Shown here piece by piece: positions 4,767-56,584 of a stretch of 64,000 nucleotides of DNA. The translations under genes and the position numbers were made by a program. The notes beneath the pieces are model-generated. The model saw nothing but the letters and a program-made list of their open reading frames with translations. It did not search any database and had not been told where the DNA came from. Location of the stretch: positions 53,756,001-53,820,000 of the forward strand of contig NC_086108.1 in assembly GCF_963921235.1 (NCBI RefSeq). Reading direction: 5' to 3'. The DNA comes from Mobula hypostoma. Taxonomy: Eukaryota. Each line of letters opens with the position of its first letter. Positions within the stretch are counted from its first letter, which is position 1.

Positions 4767-5635
4767 CAAACACCAGGGAATCTGCAGATGCCCATTCACT
4801 CCCCCCCATCCCTCCCCACTGATCTCCCTCCCGGCACTTATCCTTGTAAGCGGAACAAGTGCTACACATGCCCTTACACTTCCTCCCTTACCACCATTCA
4901 GGGCCCCAGACAGTCCTTCCAGGTAAGGCGACACTTTACCTGTGAGTCAGCTGGGGTGATATACTGCGTCCGGTGCTCCCGATGTGGCCTTCTATATATT
5001 GGTGAGACCCGACGCAGACAGGGAGATCATTTCGCTGAACACCTATGCTCTGTCTGCCAGGGTAAGGGGCCACACATTTTAATTCCACATCCCATTCCCA
5101 TTCTAATATGTCTATCCATGGCCTCCCCTACTGTAAAGATGAAGCCGCACTCAGGTTGGAGGAACAACACCTTATATTCCGTCTGGGTAGCCTCCAAGCT
5201 GATGGCATGAACATTGACTTCTCAAACTTCCGCTAATGCCCCTCCTCCCCCTCGTACCCCATCCATTATTTATTTATATACACACTTTTTTTTGTCTCTC
5301 CTTTTTCTCCCTCTATCCCTCTCACTACACCCCTTGCCCATCCTCTCTGCTTTTTCCACCCCTCCCCCGTTTCTTTCTCCCCGGACCTCCTGTCCCATGA
5401 TCCTCTCATATCCCTTTTGCCAATCACCTGTCCAGCTCTTGGCTCCATCCCTCCCCCTCCTGTCTTCTCCTATCATTTTGGATCTCCTGCTCCCCCTCCC
5501 ACTTTCAAATCTCTTACTAGCTCTTCCTTCAGTTAGTCCTGACAAAGGATCTTGGCCGGAAACGTTGACTGTACTTCTTCCTATAGATGCTGCCTGGCCT
5601 GCTGCGTTCACCAGCAACTTTTATGTGTGTTGCTG
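4767..5635 (+). mobile_element. Penelope-like element (Neptune-type) 3' part: GIY-YIG endonuclease remnant, pyrimidine-rich UTR and decayed hammerhead
   Basis: ORF 4788-5210 reads PCKRNKCYTCP...FTCESAGVIYCVRCSRCGLLYIGETRRR. 12 bp TSD GGTACATTAATT at 4755-4766 and 5636-5647. A short inverted tail copy lies at 4767-4790. Confidence 0.9.
5535..5570 (+). ncRNA. Degenerate minimal hammerhead ribozyme (PLE)
   Basis: agtc-CTGACAA-aggatcttggccg-GAAAC-GTT-gact. Core G8 is mutated, so it is probably inactive. Confidence 0.6.
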
Positions 5636-5647
5636 GGTACATTAATT

Positions 5648-5745
5648 AGACTCATCGTTTCCATGGGTGCTGCCTGACCTGCTGAGTTCCTCCAGCGTGT
5701 TGTGAGTGTTGCTTTGATCCCAGCATCTGCAGATTATTTTGTGTT
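5648..5745 (+). mobile_element. Second, short PLE 3' tail insertion
   Basis: GCTGCCTGACCTGCTGAGTTCCTCCAGC...CAGCATCTGCAGATTATTTTGTGTT, bounded by TACATTAATT copies. Confidence 0.75.
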
Positions 5746-6690
5746 TACATTAATTGGTCACTGTAATTTGTCCCATGATTAGGTTAGGGTTAATTGAGGC
5801 TGTGGGGTTGCTGGGGCGGTGTGGCTTGAAGAGCCAGAAGGGCCTACTCCGTGCTAAGTAAATAAATAAAATTTGTTAGCTATCTGTAATATCTTCTTGG
5901 TCTTCTGCTGCTGTAGCCCATCCACTTCAACATTCGGCATGTTGTGCATTCAGAGATGCTCTTCTGCACACCTCTGTTGTAAAGCGTGGTTATCTGAGTT
6001 ACTGTCACCTTCCTGTCGGCTTGAAGCAACCTGGCCATTCTCCTCTGGCCTCTCTCAATAACATGGCATTTTCACCCACAGAACTGCTGCTCAATGCATT
6101 TTTTTTTGTTTTTCGCACTATTCTCTGTAAACTGTAGAGGCCGTTGTGCATGAAAATCCCAGGAGATCAGCTGTTTCTGAGAACTCAAGCCATTCTGTCT
6201 GGCACCAACAATCATTCCACGGTCAGTCATTTAGGTCACGTTTCTTCCCCCCCCCCCCCCCAGTCTGATGTTTGGTCTGAACAACTGAGTTGCTGCCACA
6301 TGATTGGCTGATTAAATTAGAGCATTAATAAGCAGGTGTGCAGGTGGTCACTGAGTGTACATTATGTGCTTGAAATATCCGTGATTTGACGAATGTTTGT
6401 ACTGTTGTGGAAAGCACATTTTGCAATAGATTGGGAGGTCAATTCTGCACAGTGACATTAACAGTTTTTTTTTGGGGGGGTTGGTGTTCAGTGGACAACA
6501 GAATGTGGAGAATTAATTGCCTCTTTTCCCGGAAGGGCGTCAAGTCAATTGGCAGGACTGTTGCAGAGATGACCAGTTTTCAAGCCAACAGTGCTCCCTC
6601 CTCTGTTGCACTGTCTAGAACTGAGGAAGTGCTGCATTGCTGAAAGTGCTGGCCACAGTATTGGCTTGGATGTTTAGTCACGGCATTCGG

Positions 6691-15869: not shown

Positions 15870-16780
15870 TATATTTTAAAATTAGTTTGTCAAATGTACA
15901 TTGAAACATGCAGTGAAGTGCGTCATTTCCATCAAATTTAATCATCGAGGATTGCGCTGGGCAGCCTGAAATTGTTGCCCTGCTTCCGGCACCAACATAG
16001 CATGCCCACAACTTAGTGACCCTAGCCACAACATAGCATGCCCACAACTTAGTGACCCTAACCACAACATAGCATGCCCGCAACTTAGTGACCCTAACCA
16101 CAACATAGCATGCCCGCAACTTAGTGACCCTAACCACAACATAGCAGCTCACAACTTAGTGACCCTAACCACAACATAGCATGCCCACAACTTAGTGGCC
16201 CTAACCACAACATAGCATGCCCGCAACTTAGTGACCCTAACCACAACATAGCATGCCCGCAACTTAGTGACCCTAACCCCAACATAGCATGCCCGCAACT
16301 TAGTGACCCTAACCACAACATAGCAGCTCACAACTTAGTGACCCTAACCACAACATAGCATGCCCGCAACTTAGTGACCCTAACCACAACATAGCATGCC
16401 CGCAACTTAGTGACCCTAACCACAACATAGCAGCTCACAACTTAGTGACCCTAACCACAACATAGCAGCCCGCAACTTAGTGACCCTAACCACAACATAG
16501 CAGCCCACAACTTAGTGACCCTAACCACAACATAGCAGCCCGCAACTTAGTGACCCTAACCACAACATAGCATGCCCGCAACTTAGCGACCCTAACCACA
16601 ACATAGCATGCCCGCAACTTAGTGACCCTAACCACATGTGTTTGGAATGTTGGGGGGGAAGCTGGAAGAGTCATGGGGAGAACGAACAAATTCCATGCAG
16701 ACAGCGGTGGGAATTGGACTCCAATCTTCTAGCTGGCGCTGTAAAGCAATGCCTAACCCTCATGTTACCATGACACCCAT
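15870..16780 (-). mobile_element. V-SINE-like element containing an internal minisatellite expansion
   Basis: The flanks TTTGGAATGTTGGGGGGGAAGCTGG...GGGGAGAACGAACAAATTCC...GGGAATTGGACTC...CTGGCGCTGTAAAGC are the reverse-complement V-domain and tRNA head. Confidence 0.7.
15993..16636. repeat. Minisatellite of 18 copies of a 35/36 bp unit
   Basis: Unit CAACATAGCATGCCCGCAACTTAGTGACCCTAACCA (36 bp), with 35 bp variants (...AGCAGCTCACAAC..., ...AGCAGCCCGCAAC...). No spacers. Confidence 0.97.
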
Positions 16781-42891: not shown

Positions 42892-42985
42892 CAGCATAGA
42901 GAAAGTTAAGCAACCAGTTACTCACATGAATTTCTCAGCAATTAAATTCATGAGTGTAATTGGTTGCTTAACTTTCTTTATTCTG
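42892..42985. repeat. 94 bp imperfect palindrome/hairpin (42 bp arms, 10 nt loop)
   Basis: Arm 42892-42933 versus the reverse complement of 42944-42985 differs at 5 positions, 2 of which are G-U pairs in plus-strand RNA. Confidence 0.9.
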
Positions 42986-48599: not shown

Positions 48600-49180
48600 T
48601 TTGAGTCACACGGCAGGGAAACAGGCCCTTAAGTCAACTATCCAGTACCCATCACTGCTAATCCCACTTTCAACCACTTGGCTCATAGTATTCAGTGTTG
48701 TTTATTCAAGTGCTTGTCTAAATACCCCTTAAATACTGTGGGAATACCTGTCCATCACCTGCAGAAGAAGTGTGTTCCAGATTCCAGTCAGTGTCTAGGT
48801 GAAAATTTTCCTCAGAATCCCCCTAAAGTCCTGCCCCTTACTTTAAACCTAAGATCTCTGATTTAATTTTATTACCCAGCCTGTCTATTCCCCTCACAAT
48901 TGTGCATAGCCGGGTTAGATTCCCGTCAACCTCCAATGTTGTTGGCAAAACACACCCAGCCTAATCAGTCTCTCCACACACAAACATTCCATTCTAGGCA
49001 ATGTCTTGGTGAATCTCCACTTCACCCTCTCTAGTACCATCATATACTTCCTTTAGTGTGGCAACCAGAACTGCCCACTACGCCAGCTGTGGTCTAACCA
49101 ATGGTTTGTATAGTTGTATGATAATCTCTCTGCCATTGTATTATATGTCCCAGCTAATGGTGTTCATTATCCTGCAAGCC
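48600..49180 (-). mobile_element. CR1 3' region
   Basis: GGAAACAGGCCCTT...CTAGGCAATGTCTTGGTGAATCTCC...GTGTGGCAACCAGAACTGC...TGTGGTCTAACCAATG. Confidence 0.75.
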
Positions 49181-50134
49181 ATCTTCAGAGCTCTAAGGTT
49201 GTCAGAGATAAAAGTTGACACAGTCTCTTTCTTTGTACTGTTGCTGAAAGTGGTATTGGATAGAGATTTAAAGGTGGTCATTTTCCTGGTGTGCCTGACC
49301 AGGAAGTGCATTGTTTATGATTGGAAGGTAGCCACCACAGAGTAGCACTGTCCTCTCTTCACCCAGTCTCAACCAGCAGGCATTTTGTCGAACTTGCCTT
49401 TTTGGAGTTTTTCTTTCCCACTTCCCTTCCAAAGGCATGTTGAAGGCACGTGGGAAATTGAACAGCTTAGCTGAGCTATTTGGGGAAGGTGTACTCACTC
49501 TATAATTGAGGCTGTGCATGTCAAACAAGAATTTCAGTGGGAATCTAGAAGGACTGTGCTACACATGCCTCCCCAGTCAGATGGAAACCAGCTTCCTGTT
49601 TGTAAGGTACTTCCTGCTGCACCGACTCATATTAAGGAGGTTTTAACAGGCAGACAACCAGCAAACGCAGTGCAAAGTTCAGTCTAATCTCTGTGGGCGT
49701 TTGAAAACCAGTGATGCAAGTGCATGGTTTAACTGGCTGTCAAAACAAATCTCTTTGTAGTGCAGGAGGCCCTACAGTACAAAGGACTCCACCTCTTTGG
49801 GAGCCAGCTTCAAGAGGAATGGGACTTTTGGCCTACTGAGTATGTGCCGACCATCAAGCACCCTCTTACACTAATATCATATTATTCTCTCCCAAACCCA
49901 TCGAGTTCGCCCGCTCACATACACACTTGGGCAAATTTACAGTGAACAATGAACCTGTCAGCCTGTCTGTCTTTGGGATGTACAAGGAAACTCCTGTGGT
50001 TACAAGGAAAATGTGCGGATACCACACGGCCAGCACTGGACGTCAGGCTTGAACCCAGAACACTGGAGCTCTGAGGAACACTCACAATGTGCTGGAGGAA
50101 CTCAGCAGGTCAATCAGCATTAGTTGAAAAGAGT

Positions 50135-50170
50135 AGTCGACGTTTCGGGCCGAAACCCTTCATCAGGACT
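50135..50170 (-). ncRNA. Minimal type I hammerhead ribozyme, intact core
   Basis: Minus strand: AGUC-CUGAUGA-A-GGGU(UUCG)GCCC-GAAAC-GUC-GACU, with stem I AGUC/GACU, stem II and a GUC cleavage triplet. Confidence 0.85.
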
Positions 50171-51704
50171 GAAGGAAGAATTTTGGGGAGGGTTTGAAGA
50201 ATGCTGGTAATTGAAAAAAACTAATTTGAAAGACAAAATGGTGGGGAGGGGAAGCAAGGAGGTGATTGGCAGGAGAACAATAGTAGAAGGAGGTGGAACT
50301 ATGAGGGAGATGATGTGAAATAGGGATGGAGGAAGGGAGGGGGAGGGAATTACCGGAAGTTGGAGAATTCTACGTTCATACCAAGGGGCTGGAGACTACC
50401 TAGACGGTATATGAGGTGTTGCTCCTCCAACCTGAGTTTAGCCTCATCATGGCAGTAGAGGAGACCATGTATGGACATATCTGAATGGGAATGGGAAGCA
50501 GAGTTGAAGTGGGTGGCTACCGGAGATCCTGTCTGTTGTGGCAGACGGAGTGGAGGTGCTCGATGAAGCGGTCCCCCAATCTGTGTCGGGTTTCACCGAT
50601 GTAGAGGAGGCCGCACCGGGAGCACCGGATGCAATAGATGACGCCAACAGATTCGCAAGTGAAGTGTTGCCTCACCTGGAAGGACTGTTTGGGGCCCTGA
50701 ATGGTGGCAAGAGAGGAGGTGTAGGGACTGATGTAGCACTTGCACTTACAGGGATAAGTGCTGGGAGGGAGATCCGTGGGGATGGACTTGCGGATAAGTG
50801 AGTCGCGGAGGGATCGATCCCTGCAGAAAGCGGAGAGGGGTGGAGAGGGAAAGATGTGCTTAGTGGTGGGGTCCTGTTGAAGGTGGCGGAAGTTGCGGAG
50901 GATAATGTGCTGGATCCGGAGGCTGGTGGGGTGGCAGGTGAGGACAAGGGGAACTCTGTCCCTGTTGTTGTGGTGGGAAGATGGGGTGAGGGCCACCACC
51001 TTCAACAGGACCCCACCACTAAGCACATCTTTCCCTCTCCGCTTTCCGCAGGGATTGATCCCTCCGTGACTCACCTATCCGCACATCCATCCCCACGGAT
51101 CTCCCACCCAGCACTTATCCCTGTAAGCGTAAGTGCTACACCAGTCCCTACACCTCCTCTCTTGCCACCATTCAGGGCCCCAAACAGTCCTTCCAGGTGA
51201 GGCAACACTTCACTTGCGAATCTGTTGGCATCATCTATTGCATCTGGTGCTCCCGGTGCGGCCTCCTCTACATCGGTAAAACCCAACGCAGATTGGGGGA
51301 CCGCTTCGTCGAGCACCTCCACTCCGTCCGCCACAACAGACAGGATCTCCTGGTAGCCACCCACTTCAACACTGCTTCCCATTCCCATTCAGATATGTCC
51401 ATACATGGCCTTCTCTACTGCCATGATGAGGCTAACCTCAGGTTGGAGGAACAACACCTCATATACCGTCTTGGTAGTCTCCAGCCCCTTGGTATGAACA
51501 TAGAATTCTCCAACTTCCGGTAATTCCCTCCCCCTCCCTTCCTCTATCCCTATTTCACATCACCTCCCTCATAGTTCCGCCTCCTTCTACTATTGTTCTC
51601 CTGCCAATCACCTCCTTGCTTCCCCTCCCCACCCCTTTGTCTTTCAAATTACTGTTTTTTTCAACTACCAGCATTCTTCAAACCCTCCCCAAAGTTCTTC
51701 CTTC

Positions 51705-51740
51705 AGTCCTGAGGAAGGGTTTCGGCCTGAAACGTCGACT
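51705..51740 (+). ncRNA. Minimal type I hammerhead ribozyme, intact core
   Basis: AGUC-CUGAGGA-A-GGGU(UUCG)GCCU-GAAAC-GUC-GACU; predicted cut after 51736. Confidence 0.8.
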
Positions 51741-52641
51741 AATCTTTTCAACTGATGCTGACTGACCTGCTGAGTTCCTCCAGCGCATTGTAAGTGTTCC
51801 TTTGACAACAGCATCTGCAGATTATTTTGTGTTTACTGGAGTTCTGAGGCAGCAGTTCCACTAGCTGTGCCACTCTGCTAGTCTGAAGGAGGGAAGGTTC
51901 ACATTTAACTCCCATCCCTGTGAAGAAGGGGATTGGTGAGCTGGACACTGGCAACCCTGGGGAAAGTTTAGGTGAAGGAGTTGAGTGGTTGCCTAGGGAA
52001 GACAAAAGGCAAAAGTGCCTTCCAGCATGCCAGACAGTCAAATTAACAGTGGAGAAAAAAAATCAAAGCTCAGTCTGTAAATTATTTTTTGTTAACCAGA
52101 TTAATAGTTGTCGTTAGTCTTGGTGAGACCTGGATTAGGGAAGGGAGAAATCAACCACGGTACTTGTTCCAATGTGAAGGTGGAAGTGGACGGTGGGATA
52201 GGGTCAGACATGATGGTTGAGCTGTTGGAAGTACTGTTTGTCCTGACTGCTGGGGGAGAAGGTGCCACTTGTGTGAGCGATGAGAGAGGAAGCAAATATA
52301 GGAATATATTATGTTAGAAGTATTTTTAATCCTGGAGTTTCCATGATTAAAGATATTTCTACAATACAAGTGGTCATTTCATTTTATTTTTCTCTAGGTC
52401 TTCCTGACTTTCAGCATGAACCAACCACTCCACACCATTATTTCTCTCCAAATTGAGTCTGGCTCCTTGCTAAGTGTGCAGAAAACAATTTGATCTGGAC
52501 TTATCCCCTGAGATTTATAATCATAGCATCACACAGTCGAACCACATGGAACCAGATCTTTTGTCCCAAATAGTCAATGCCTTTCTATGCTAATCTCATT
52601 TTCCACCATACCTGTGCAAATGCTTTCAAGACACTGTGAAA

Positions 52642-54133
52642 GGTGGGGTGGTAGGTGAGGTCAAGAGGAACCCTATCTCCTGGTAGGATGGCGGGAGGAT
52701 GAGGTGAGAACGGATGTGCATAAAATGGAAGCAATGCGGTTGAGGGCAGTGTTGATGGTAGAGAAAGGGAAGCCCCTTTCTTTGAAGAAGGAGGACATCT
52801 CCTTCGTTCTGGAATGAAAAGCCTCATTCTGAGGGCAGGTGGAGCGGAGACGGAGGAATTGAGAGAAAGGGATGGTGTTTTTACAAGTAACAGGGTAGGA
52901 GGGGGTATAGTCCAGTTAGCTGTGAGAGTCCATGGGTTTGTAATAGACATCAGTAGATAAGCTGTCTCCAGAGATAGAAACAGAGAGATCAAGAAAGAGG
53001 AGGGAGGTGTCAGAAATGGACCAAGTAAATTTGAAAGCAGTATGAGTTGGAGGCAAAGTGGATGAAGACAATGAGTTCTTCATGAGCACAGGAAGCAGCA
53101 CCAGTGCAGTCATCAGTGTAGCACAGGAAAAGTGTGGGACCAACGCTGGTGTCGGCTTGGAACATAGACTGGTCCATGTAGCCAACAAGTAGGCAGGCAT
53201 AGCTGGGACCCATGTGAGTGCCCATGGCTAAACCTTTCATGTGACGGAAGTGGGAGGAGCCAAAGGAGAAATTACTTAGAGTGAGGACAAATTCTGCTAG
53301 GCGGAGGAGAGTGGTGGTGGAGAGGAACTGGTTGGGTCTGGTGTCCAGAAAGAAATGGAGAGCTTTGAGGCCTTCTTGGTTGGAAATAGGAGTGTATAGG
53401 GACTGGACATGCACAGTAAAAATAAGGTGATGGGGTCAGGGAACCTGAAATTATTGAAAAGATCCAGAGTGTGTGAAGTGTCATGGATGTAAGTAGGAAG
53501 GGACTGAAATGGGGGGATAAAACAGAGTTGAGGTATGCAGATATAATTTCAGTGGGGCAGGACCAAGCTGAAACAATGGGTCTACCTGGACAGGTGGGTT
53601 TGTGGATCTTGGGGTAGGAGGTAGAAACAGGAGGTGCGGGGTGCGGGAACTATGAGTTTGGTGGTGGTGGATGGGAGATTCCCAGCGTCGATAAGGTTGG
53701 CGATGGTGTGGGAGACAATAGCCTGGTGTTCCTTAGTGGTGTCCTGTTGAAGGAGTAAGTAAGAGGAGGTGTCTGAGAGTTGTCACTGGGCCTCAGCAAG
53801 ATAGAGATCAGTATGCCAGACTAATACAGCACCCCACTTTCTGAGGGTTTGATGGTGAGGTTAGGGTTGGCGCGGAGGGAGTGGAGAGCAGAGCATTCGG
53901 AAGGAGTCAGGTTGGAATTGGAGAGAGGAATGTTGAAGTTTAGACGGTTGATGCCCCATTGGCAGTTGGCAGTGTAAAGATCCAGAGCAGGCAGAAGACC
54001 AGGGCAGGGTGTCCAGGAAGAGGAGGAGTGTTGAACACGGGAGAAGGGGTAATTGGTGTGGGGTGGAGAGTCCTTGCCAAAGAAATAGGCTCGGAGATGG
54101 AGGTTCCAGAAGAAAAGCTCAACATCCTCAGTG
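52642..54133 (-). mobile_element. PLE 5' segment, decayed reverse transcriptase, inverted relative to its 3' segment
   Basis: VQSLYTPI, GLAMGTHMGPSYACL, LFLCYTDD (YIDD-like), LFLDLSVSI, TDVYYKPMDSH and DRVPLDLTYHPT, with several frameshifts. Confidence 0.92.
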
Positions 54134-55160
54134 CTACCCTACCAGAGATAGGGTTCCTCTTCTCCTCACCTACCACCTCAGCAGCCTCCGTGTCCAGCAC
54201 ATAATTCTCCACAACTTATGCCAACTCGAATGGGATCCCACCACCAAGTGCACCTTTCCCTTACCCCACTTTCTGCTTTCCGCAGGGATCGCTCCCTACA
54301 TGGCTCCCTTGTCCATTTGTTCCTCTCCACTGATCTCCCTCCTGGCACTTACCCTTACAAGAGGAACAAGTGCTACACTTTCCCCTACATCTCCTCCCTC
54401 ACTACCATTCAGGGCCCCAAACAGTCCTTCCACGTGAGGCGACACTTCACCTGTGAGTCTGTTGGGGTCATGTACTGTGTTCGGTGCTCCTGGTGTGGCC
54501 TCCTGTACATCGGTGAGACCCAATGTAGATTGGCAGACCACTTTGCCAAGCACCTACGCTGCAGCAGAAAAAGCGGGATCTGTCAGTAGCCACTCATTTT
54601 AATTCCACTTCCCATTCCCATTCTGATATGTCTATCCATGGCCTCCTCTACTGTTGTGATGAGGCCTCACTTAGGTGGAGGAATAACACCTTATATTCCG
54701 TCTGGGTAGCCTCCAACTTGATGACATGAACATCAATTTCTCAAACTTCCAGTAATGTCCCTCTCCCGTCACCTTCACCATTCCTCATCCTCTTTTCCCT
54801 CTCTCACTTTATCTCCTTGCCCGCTCATCACCTCCCTCTGGTGCTCCTCCCCACTTTTCTTTTCCCATAGCCTTCTGTCCTCTTCTGTCAGACTCCCCCT
54901 TCTCCAGACCTGTATCATTTTCACCAATCAACTTCCCAGCACTTTACTTCATCCCTCCCCTTCCCAGTACTTTACTTCATCCCTCCCCTTCCCAGTTTCA
55001 CCTATCACCTTGTGTTTCTCTCTCCCCCACCTTCTAAATCTACTCCTCAACTTTTTTTCTCCAGTCCTGCTGAAGGGTCTCGGCCCAAAATGTCAAAGGT
55101 ACTCTTTTCCATGAATGCTGCCTGACCTGCTGAGCTCCCCCAGCGTTTTGTGTGTGTTGC
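54132..55160 (+). mobile_element. PLE 3' segment: Cys linker, GIY-YIG, UTR, decayed hammerhead (55063-55098) and tail
   Basis: DRVPLLLTYH...HFTCESVGVMYCVRCSWCGLLYIGETQCRL. Hammerhead remnant agtc-CTGCTGA-agggtctcggccc-AAAATGTC. Confidence 0.92.
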
Positions 55161-56389
55161 TGCTGTATAACTGAAGCATTCCAAACCAGGCCAAAATGTG
55201 GTGAACCTCTACTGCTACCATATCCTTTCTATAGTGTGGTAACCAGAAATGCACACAGTATTATAAGTCTGACCTAACCAATACCTTGTACAGCTGCCAT
55301 ATAACATCCTAACTCTTATATTCAATCTATGAAGTCAAATAAGTTCACTGCCCTATTCACCTATGTTGCCATTTTCAGGGAGCTAGGACTTTGAACTTCA
55401 AAGTCTCCCTGTATGTCTGTGCTTGTTAAATCCCCATTACATGAGCTGCTGATATTACATGACTAAAAATGCATTACATCACTTGTCTTGATTAAACTTA
55501 ATCTGCCACTACTCCACCCAACTTTCCAGCTGATCTAAATTTCTCTATCTATAGGCAATTAACCTCGCTAACTACAAATCTTCATGTCATCAGTAAACTT
55601 ACTTATCAGAGCACAGAACTTCACATTCAAACATCAAAGGTTCCAGCAACAATTCCTGTGGTACAACACTGATTACAGACTTTCAGATAAATAAACCCCA
55701 CCACCACATTCTACATCCTATCACCAAGCCAATTTTGGATCTATTTTCACAAAACCCTTTGGACCCCATGTTCCTTAACTTTCTGGCCAGTCTGCCATGT
55801 AGGACCTTGTCAAAAACCTTGCTAAAGACCACGTGTATCATGTCTACCACCTTGCCTTCACTAATTTTCTTAGTAACTTCATCTAAAATACTTTGGAAGG
55901 GGATCCCAAAATGTGTTAGGCAGGATTTCGCATTCACAAAACTGTGCCAAATCCTTCCAATTGGTCTTTGCTTTTACAAGTGATTATAATTTTTCCAGTA
56001 GTTTCCCTTCTACAGAGATCAGGCTCAAAGGCTTGTAGTTTTCTTGGCTTATTGCCTCTGCCCTTCTTGAACTTGGGAATAACATTCACTGCCCTCCAGT
56101 GCTTTGATACCTCATCCATGGCTAAAGAAGATGCAGACATCTCTGTCAGAGCCCCAGCAATCTCTTCCCTTGCTTCCCATCATTGAGAGAGGTTTTATCA
56201 GGACCTGGAATTTTGTCCACTTTAGTGTGCATCAATATATCTAACACTACTCTTTCCTGATACACACAGCAAAGTCAAAAATCATAGGAGTACATGAAAG
56301 TGTGCACAGGAGCAGTGAACAACTTTTACTTACAGCAGTATCATAGGTACATAGCAGCATTCACGCACAAAAAAAACCAAATTGTAACG

Positions 56390-56584
56390 TCGCAAACACG
56401 AGGAAATCTGCAGATGCTGGAATTTCAAGCAACACACACAAAAGCCAGGCAAAATCTCCCCCTCCCCCTCCCACTTTCAAATTTCTTACTATCTCTTCTT
56501 TCAGTTAGTCCTGATGAAGGGCCTCGGCCTGAAACGTCGACTGTACCTCTTCGTAGAGATGCTGCCTGGCCTGCTGCGTTCACA
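56390..56584 (+). mobile_element. Short PLE insertion: inverted tail (56390-56444) plus forward 3' end
   Basis: CAAACACGAGGAAATCTGCAGATGCTGGAATTTCAAGCAACACAC followed by the UTR, hammerhead and GATGCTGCCTGGCCTGCTGCGTTCAC. Confidence 0.85.
56507..56542 (+). ncRNA. Minimal type I hammerhead ribozyme, intact core
   Basis: AGUC-CUGAUGA-A-GGGC(CUCG)GCCU-GAAAC-GUC-GACU; predicted cut after 56538. Confidence 0.8.

Follow-up and report, generated by a model that had tools for sequence, protein, structure and literature searches.

How does a retroelement come to leave two copies of its own 3' end, joined head to head, at one target site? The question is raised by a Penelope-like element (PLE) insertion in the window, that is, the whole 64,000-nucleotide stretch of DNA analysed here. 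In our estimate, with a probability of roughly 0.7, the unit is a single non-coding head-to-head insertion in which reverse transcription was primed twice, once from each of the two nicked strands of the target. The layout has already been published for PLEs and is common in this genome, and the locus is ordinary in itself. It is one data point; the origin of the inverted copies and tails of PLEs can be tested by counting.

Anatomy of the insertion

The unit and its host repeat comprise the following features (window coordinates, with the source of each assignment in parentheses).

49990..50076, minus strand: 3' part of the host SINE, left boundary approximate (continuity with the sequence from 51851 in other genomic copies)
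50062..50076, plus strand: left copy of the target site duplication (TSD), 15 bp, the last 3 nt of which match the element too (flank comparison, empty site)
50077..50992, minus strand: left arm, a 5'-truncated PLE copy of about 916 bp that includes 50890-50992 and ends at the tail-less site (mapping to family copy L099)
50135..50170, minus strand: minimal type I hammerhead motif, G10.1-C11.1 pair retained (motif search following the description in PMC4209133)
50353..50992, minus strand: putative remnant of linker, zinc finger and GIY-YIG domain, frame broken near 50521 (Pfam, E = 0.0038, below the cut-off)
50993..51835, plus strand: right arm, a 5'-truncated PLE copy of 843 bp that ends at the tail-bearing site (mapping to L099)
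near 51033, plus strand: 10-bp deletion in the right arm (arm alignment)
51059..51523, plus strand: open C-terminal frame of 154 aa with zinc-finger linker and GIY-YIG domain, without RT (PF01541, E = 3.7e-5, above the cut-off)
51705..51740, plus strand: minimal hammerhead motif, core retained, G10.1-U11.1 wobble (motif search)
51803..51835, plus strand: PLE tail, 33 nt (arm alignment, end comparison)
51836..51850, plus strand: right TSD copy, one mismatch (flank comparison)
51836..51880, minus strand: 5' part of the host SINE (other genomic copies)

The inverted arms, 50074-50889 and 50993-51801, are 93.65% identical over 819 alignment columns, which confirms the near-identical inverted repeat of about 800 bp described in an earlier note on this DNA. 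Between them, 40 of 806 columns hold substitutions, and there are three indels, of 10, 1 and 2 bp. Transitions make up 32 of the 40 substitutions and CpG transitions 15 of the 40, when scored against the family majority; the 10-bp deletion listed in the earlier note was seen again, but its statement that the differences were mostly CpG transitions was too strong. Apportioned between the arms, 17 of the substitutions fall to the right arm, 22 to the left arm and one to both.

The left copy maps without a break to reference positions 1944-2875 of L099 and the right copy to reference positions 2049-2908, in each case at 92.9% identity. Because the left copy is continuous on L099, the 103 nt that do separate the paired arms (50890-50992), previously described as a spacer of about 110 bp, are not separate DNA but the 5' extension of the left copy itself. 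The two copies meet head to head with an overlap of 2 nt at the central junction. The tail is confined to the right arm, making the unit asymmetric, and each arm carries element sequence that is missing from the other.

Identity of the element

The GIY-YIG match (PF01541) at the C-terminus supports the assignment of the unit to the endonuclease-bearing (EN+) PLEs and bears out the PLE identity proposed previously. A related longer copy, L178, contains the RT motifs MDVQSLYT and YIDDY (read by eye) in a frame of 620 aa, with the linker CKRKCYTC and then the GIY-YIG domain; this arrangement, with RT upstream of EN in one ORF, is missing from the truncated unit studied here. According to the published description, a CX2-5CxxC linker preceding GIY-YIG marks the Neptune and Nematis clades (PMC8557442). 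Such a linker is kept in the family, as in L178, but is mutated at this locus, where the last linker cysteine is a serine in both arms; the cysteine codon TGT occupies this position in 100 of 105 family arms. The element is probably a Neptune-type PLE, judged against Nematis by linker motif and host range. A Pfam search for host genes in 132 frames of at least 75 aa (of 149 frames, the 17 in or near the unit being left out) yielded no match; short exons would escape such a search.

One insertion event

The unit interrupts a SINE, since the join of its two flanks is crossed by 4 of 11 other genomic copies of this repeat. We take the part at 49990..50076 to belong to a tRNA-like SINE with a B-box-like GGTTCAAGCC, and the part at 51836..51880 is presumably its A-box-like 5' part; ARAGORN found no tRNA. 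One TSD, with 14 of 15 positions identical, brackets the whole unit. Furthermore, single contigs of runs X9 and X10 (organisms C and D) link the left flank to the right flank across an empty site with one copy of the TSD. The single TSD and the empty site in two organisms confirm that the two arms result from one insertion event. The earlier note had argued for a single event from the TSD within a SINE and had named an orthologous empty site as the way to check it; the argument holds, and the site is cleanly empty in both C and D.

Both outer junctions are present in contigs of X1 and X5 (organisms A and B), which enter the element by only 23-27 nt, less than the 31 nt of our bridging rule, and the flanks in organism B have 18 mismatches to the window in 989 bases. 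From these comparisons the insertion is likely to be older than the split between A and B and younger than the divergence from C and D. None of the listed contigs of X1, X2, X5 and X6 bridges the central junction; in the contig search of these four runs, residual depth near the single-copy level was recorded over 50972-50991, outside the listed contigs.

Two independent insertions, in which a later copy landed at the 5' end of an earlier one and conversion between the arms followed, would agree with the differences between the arms (40 of 806 sites), and conversion could also account for the variants that the arms share. However, one TSD surrounds the unit, the empty site is clean, junction mapping detected no second TSD at the centre, and across loci the arms belong to the same subfamily and follow a one-tail rule (see below). 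This scenario is largely refuted and has, in our view, only a very slim chance of being correct. An assembly artefact created by a chimeric fold-back read is hardly credible given that the arms differ by 6% and have unequal ends, that both outer junctions recur in organisms A and B (23-27 nt into the element), and that the same layout with TSDs is found at 37 other loci.

Two-armed units are common in the genome

The 3.48-Gb assembly contains 2410 matches to an exact pattern that combines two motifs of the family. We took a position-ordered sample consisting of 60 of the first 67 matches listed, leaving out 3 that were already in our set, 2 partner arms and 2 visibly divergent copies. Fifteen of the 60 sampled copies, about a quarter, are two-armed, and in 3 of these 15 the arms measure 780-835 bp; the count excludes L151, whose second arm is very short, and also L174 and L175, in which one arm is incomplete and a TSD is missing. 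Scaled to the 2410 matches, units with arms as long as those described here can be estimated, roughly, at a hundred genome-wide. Of the copies that match the right arm best, this locus aside, 12 of 29 also have a head-to-head partner. The excluded L151 (645-1795) lies within a perfect 14-bp TSD; all that is left of its second arm is a short inverted piece and about 9 nt from the tail-less end, and apparent single copies may hide tiny second arms of this kind.

The unit had been likened to a nascent element with long terminal inverted repeats (TIR), of which other copies with the same central junction might be expected. The central junction motif occurs once in the genome, at this locus, and the junctions are all different across the 38 units examined, which argues that such units are not recopied as TIR elements. 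A non-autonomous TIR or fold-back element was accordingly rejected as a candidate, no further copies with the same ends and centre having been found.

Family statistics and the origin of the two arms

One tail-bearing and one tail-less end are found in 41 of 42 two-armed units, the present locus included, and in all 15 units of the position-ordered sample. The lone exception to this one-tail rule, L099 (3293-6121), is close to full length, carries tails at both of its ends and lacks a TSD. A TSD was detected in 38 of the 42 units and measures 14-15 bp in 25 of these 38, and pairing the flanks of different loci as a control gave such a repeat in 0 of 300 cases; the element ends of five loci were set by hand before this tally.

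The 5' ends were mapped in 38 units, using coordinates from two reference copies, several of them hand-adjusted across gaps. The spacers range from 25 to 1870 nt with a median of about 440 nt, are no shorter than in shuffled pairs (permutation P = 0.67), and reach 30 nt or less in only one unit. The longer arm, i.e., the one extending further 5', is tail-less in 23 units and tailed in 15. Arm starts have a Spearman correlation of -0.34, which is probably a sampling effect. Both arms carry the same subfamily haplotype in 15 of the 16 scorable pairs (18 in total); in 20,000 shuffles the number of concordant pairs averaged 3.8 and never exceeded 11. The TSD-flanked units L102 (3673-4945) and L007 (1208-1935) have arms of different haplotypes, in the former at two linked sites and in the latter by a 7-bp indel near the arm edge. 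Discordant arms of this kind are not obtainable from one self-copying strand; alternatively, ectopic conversion could also give rise to them.

At the present locus, the arms share three non-CpG variants, one of which turns the last linker cysteine to serine. Patterns pairing these variants match only the two arms genome-wide, compared with 2410 matches to the majority pattern, and the genome pattern search did not reveal a source copy with all three. In 31 arm pairs, which include the false pair L130 and the complex unit L121, shared private variants number 12 per 12,929 columns against a background of 0.10 per 1000 in unrelated same-subfamily pairs, that is, sharing is about nine times the background. 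Any of three origins would account for the shared variants: a rare source RNA that may have been defective, a single cDNA copied by fold-back, or subsequent conversion. The sharing speaks against priming by both target strands, as do the two tails of L099.

Fold-back deserves consideration in the form of a hybrid route, whereby the top-strand cDNA (left arm) folded back and copied itself into the right arm, and the tail came from a second, short cDNA. The three private variants common to both arms are compatible with such a route, as is the loop of only about 25 nt in L124, and self-priming has been proposed for inverted PLE junctions (PMC3846280). At this locus, however, 2 nt of pairing would have to close a loop of 103 nt, and the 33-nt tail would call for a second primer all the same; moreover, the route does not sit well with the long spacers of the family or with the discordant arms of L102 and L007. 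We regard it as unlikely. As the name of a mechanism, the "fold-back" of the earlier note is not supported, because each arm has sequence that the other lacks and the truncation points are unrelated in 38 units; the family statistics favour two-primer synthesis.

Experiments on PAc, a Poseidon element of the anole (Frangieh et al. 2024, PMC11167929), bear on two-primer synthesis. In the published account, the PLE protein nicks and extends both strands in vitro, reverse transcription has two adjacent internal start sites, which delimit the tail, the start site shows no strand preference, the protein is predicted to form a dimer, and hammerhead cleavage is unnecessary for insertion. From the one-tail rule, the unrelated truncation points, the haplotype data and this reaction, we infer two primers and independently truncated cDNAs. 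Under two-primer synthesis, the element nuclease would nick the target at two points separated by 15 bp. Of the two 3' ends set free, one would prime cDNA synthesis at the site that includes the tail and the other 33 nt further upstream on the RNA, at the tail-less site. Synthesis of the two strands would stop independently after about 840 and 920 nt, and the cDNA ends would be joined over the 2-nt overlap and then filled in. Both templates would likely have come from one source locus with the three private variants, and given that one of these changes a zinc-finger cysteine, the source may be defective and may have been moved in trans.

Hammerheads and the predicted hairpin

Both hammerhead motifs possess the core CUGANGA, GAAA and UH, helices I and II, and the palindromic 15.2-16.2 positions, and by sequence are minimal, dimer-type motifs. 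The minimal metazoan PLE hammerhead is described as lacking helix III, and one tested single motif did not cleave (Cervera and de la Pena 2014, PMC4209133). The motifs found here resemble it in the short helix I, the extra base before G10.1-C11.1, the palindromic 15.2-16.2 and the missing helix III; they differ from it in the conserved 10.1-11.1 pair, which is G-U in the right copy. Opposite-strand hammerhead pairs 100-700 bp apart had already been noted in the same paper. An Rfam scan of 49000-53000 at E <= 5 detected no hammerhead family, and the isolated motifs showed no hammerhead fold in their MFE structures (z from -1.2 to 0). The claim of an intact hammerhead at each outer end is thus upheld for the core, which is present in both arms, but not for the right arm as a whole, with its G-U pair, nor by an Rfam match. 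Because a single motif of the minimal class did not cleave, hammerhead self-cleavage at this locus is unlikely.

Either strand is predicted to fold into a structure with about 800 long-range pairs, the longest helices being 88 and 114 bp, in which 26-27 of the 28 nt of the hammerhead pair with its antisense copy. The hairpin and the masking of the ribozyme in read-through RNA, as envisaged previously, hold as folding predictions. It is improbable that the unit is transcribed and that the hairpin serves as a source of small RNAs or as an editing substrate helping to silence the family. The predicted fold and masking would suit such a role, and PLE small RNAs have been reported in a rotifer (PMC3846280), but the arms decay evenly (17 and 22 changes), as expected without constraint, and with about a quarter of the sampled copies two-armed the locus would be dispensable. 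Being one of an estimated hundred or so units with arms this long, it is not special as a silencing trigger. No RNA run was listed in the sequencing-run search, which is uninformative on expression. The unit has decayed since its insertion, and it most likely does nothing.

Other repeats in the window

Additional PLE sequences are present in the window. The region 52642-55161 contains an older copy whose identity to the young family is 70-76% and which has undergone an internal inversion of the L1-like kind; its minus part is the RT region and its plus part the 3' end, with an overlap of 40-60 bp, and a TSD search for this element was negative. In a short PLE stub at 56394-56583, the left side is an inverted piece of the tail and the right side an arm with a hammerhead; no TSD was found for this stub. 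At 5555-5748, two PLE 3' ends lie in direct tandem, the first tail-less and the second tailed. Apart from PLEs, we observed a tandem array of 18 copies of a 36-bp unit with CCCTAA (15993-16636, 95% matches) and an AT-rich, imperfect 94-bp palindrome (42892-42985, 81% self-complementary, no TSD found) that is possibly a MITE remnant.

Relation to known systems

L1-like internal inversions account for 8 of 48 junction rows in the same PLE family, a further point in favour of two-primer synthesis. In L1 twin priming, the second target strand primes a second cDNA, and the cDNAs are joined over short overlaps; the RNA position used by the second primer is further upstream, and the two parts do not overlap. 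The unit described here resembles the products of twin priming in the use of the second target strand and in the joining of ends over short overlaps, but here both cDNAs would begin at the 3' end, with 810 nt copied in each of them.

As far as the published descriptions go, insertions of EN+ PLEs contain an inverted, 5'-truncated copy with a tail of 30-40 bp at one end (Craig et al. 2021, PMC8557442), and the same layout, usually head-to-head, occurs with TSDs of 8-10 bp and has been ascribed to proposed self-priming (Arkhipova et al. 2013, PMC3846280); Pen2a_Av, for example, has a 9-bp TSD and a 31-bp tail. The known inverted layout of PLEs, mentioned in the earlier note, matches both descriptions. 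The present unit is similar in its head-to-head copies, one-sided tail of 33 nt, single TSD, GIY-YIG C-terminus and hammerhead near the 3' end. It differs in that the arms are long truncated stubs (840 and 920 bp) without RT, the TSD is 14-15 bp rather than 8-10 bp, and there is no palindrome at the centre.

With PAc, the family would share two RT starts that define the tail and two strands that are nicked and extended (PMC11167929). The accessible text of that paper reports no strand difference in the start site, whereas here the ends differ in 41 of 42 units, and it does not tie the reaction to head-to-head insertions. In the literature covered, the layout is described and we found no paper linking it to two-strand priming; a bioRxiv preprint (10.64898/2026.07.22.740005) has, in its accessible text, no bearing on this link.

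Implications for PLE integration

Through the one-tail rule, the unrelated truncation points and the few mixed-subfamily pairs, insertions in the genome are connected with the in vitro reaction, in which there are two start sites and both strands are used. With no strand preference in vitro, the one-tail rule is left unexplained by the account of PMC11167929. We tentatively suggest, as a possibility about which we retain some doubt, an asymmetric dimer whose two subunits, each able to hold its own RNA, would prime the two strands at fixed, different RT starts. If true, this would account for one tail per insertion, independent truncations and occasional arms of two subfamilies. It would also replace the self-priming proposal, and the hundreds of units in this genome would make it countable. 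The family-wide pattern is thus a modest, testable lead on PLE integration.
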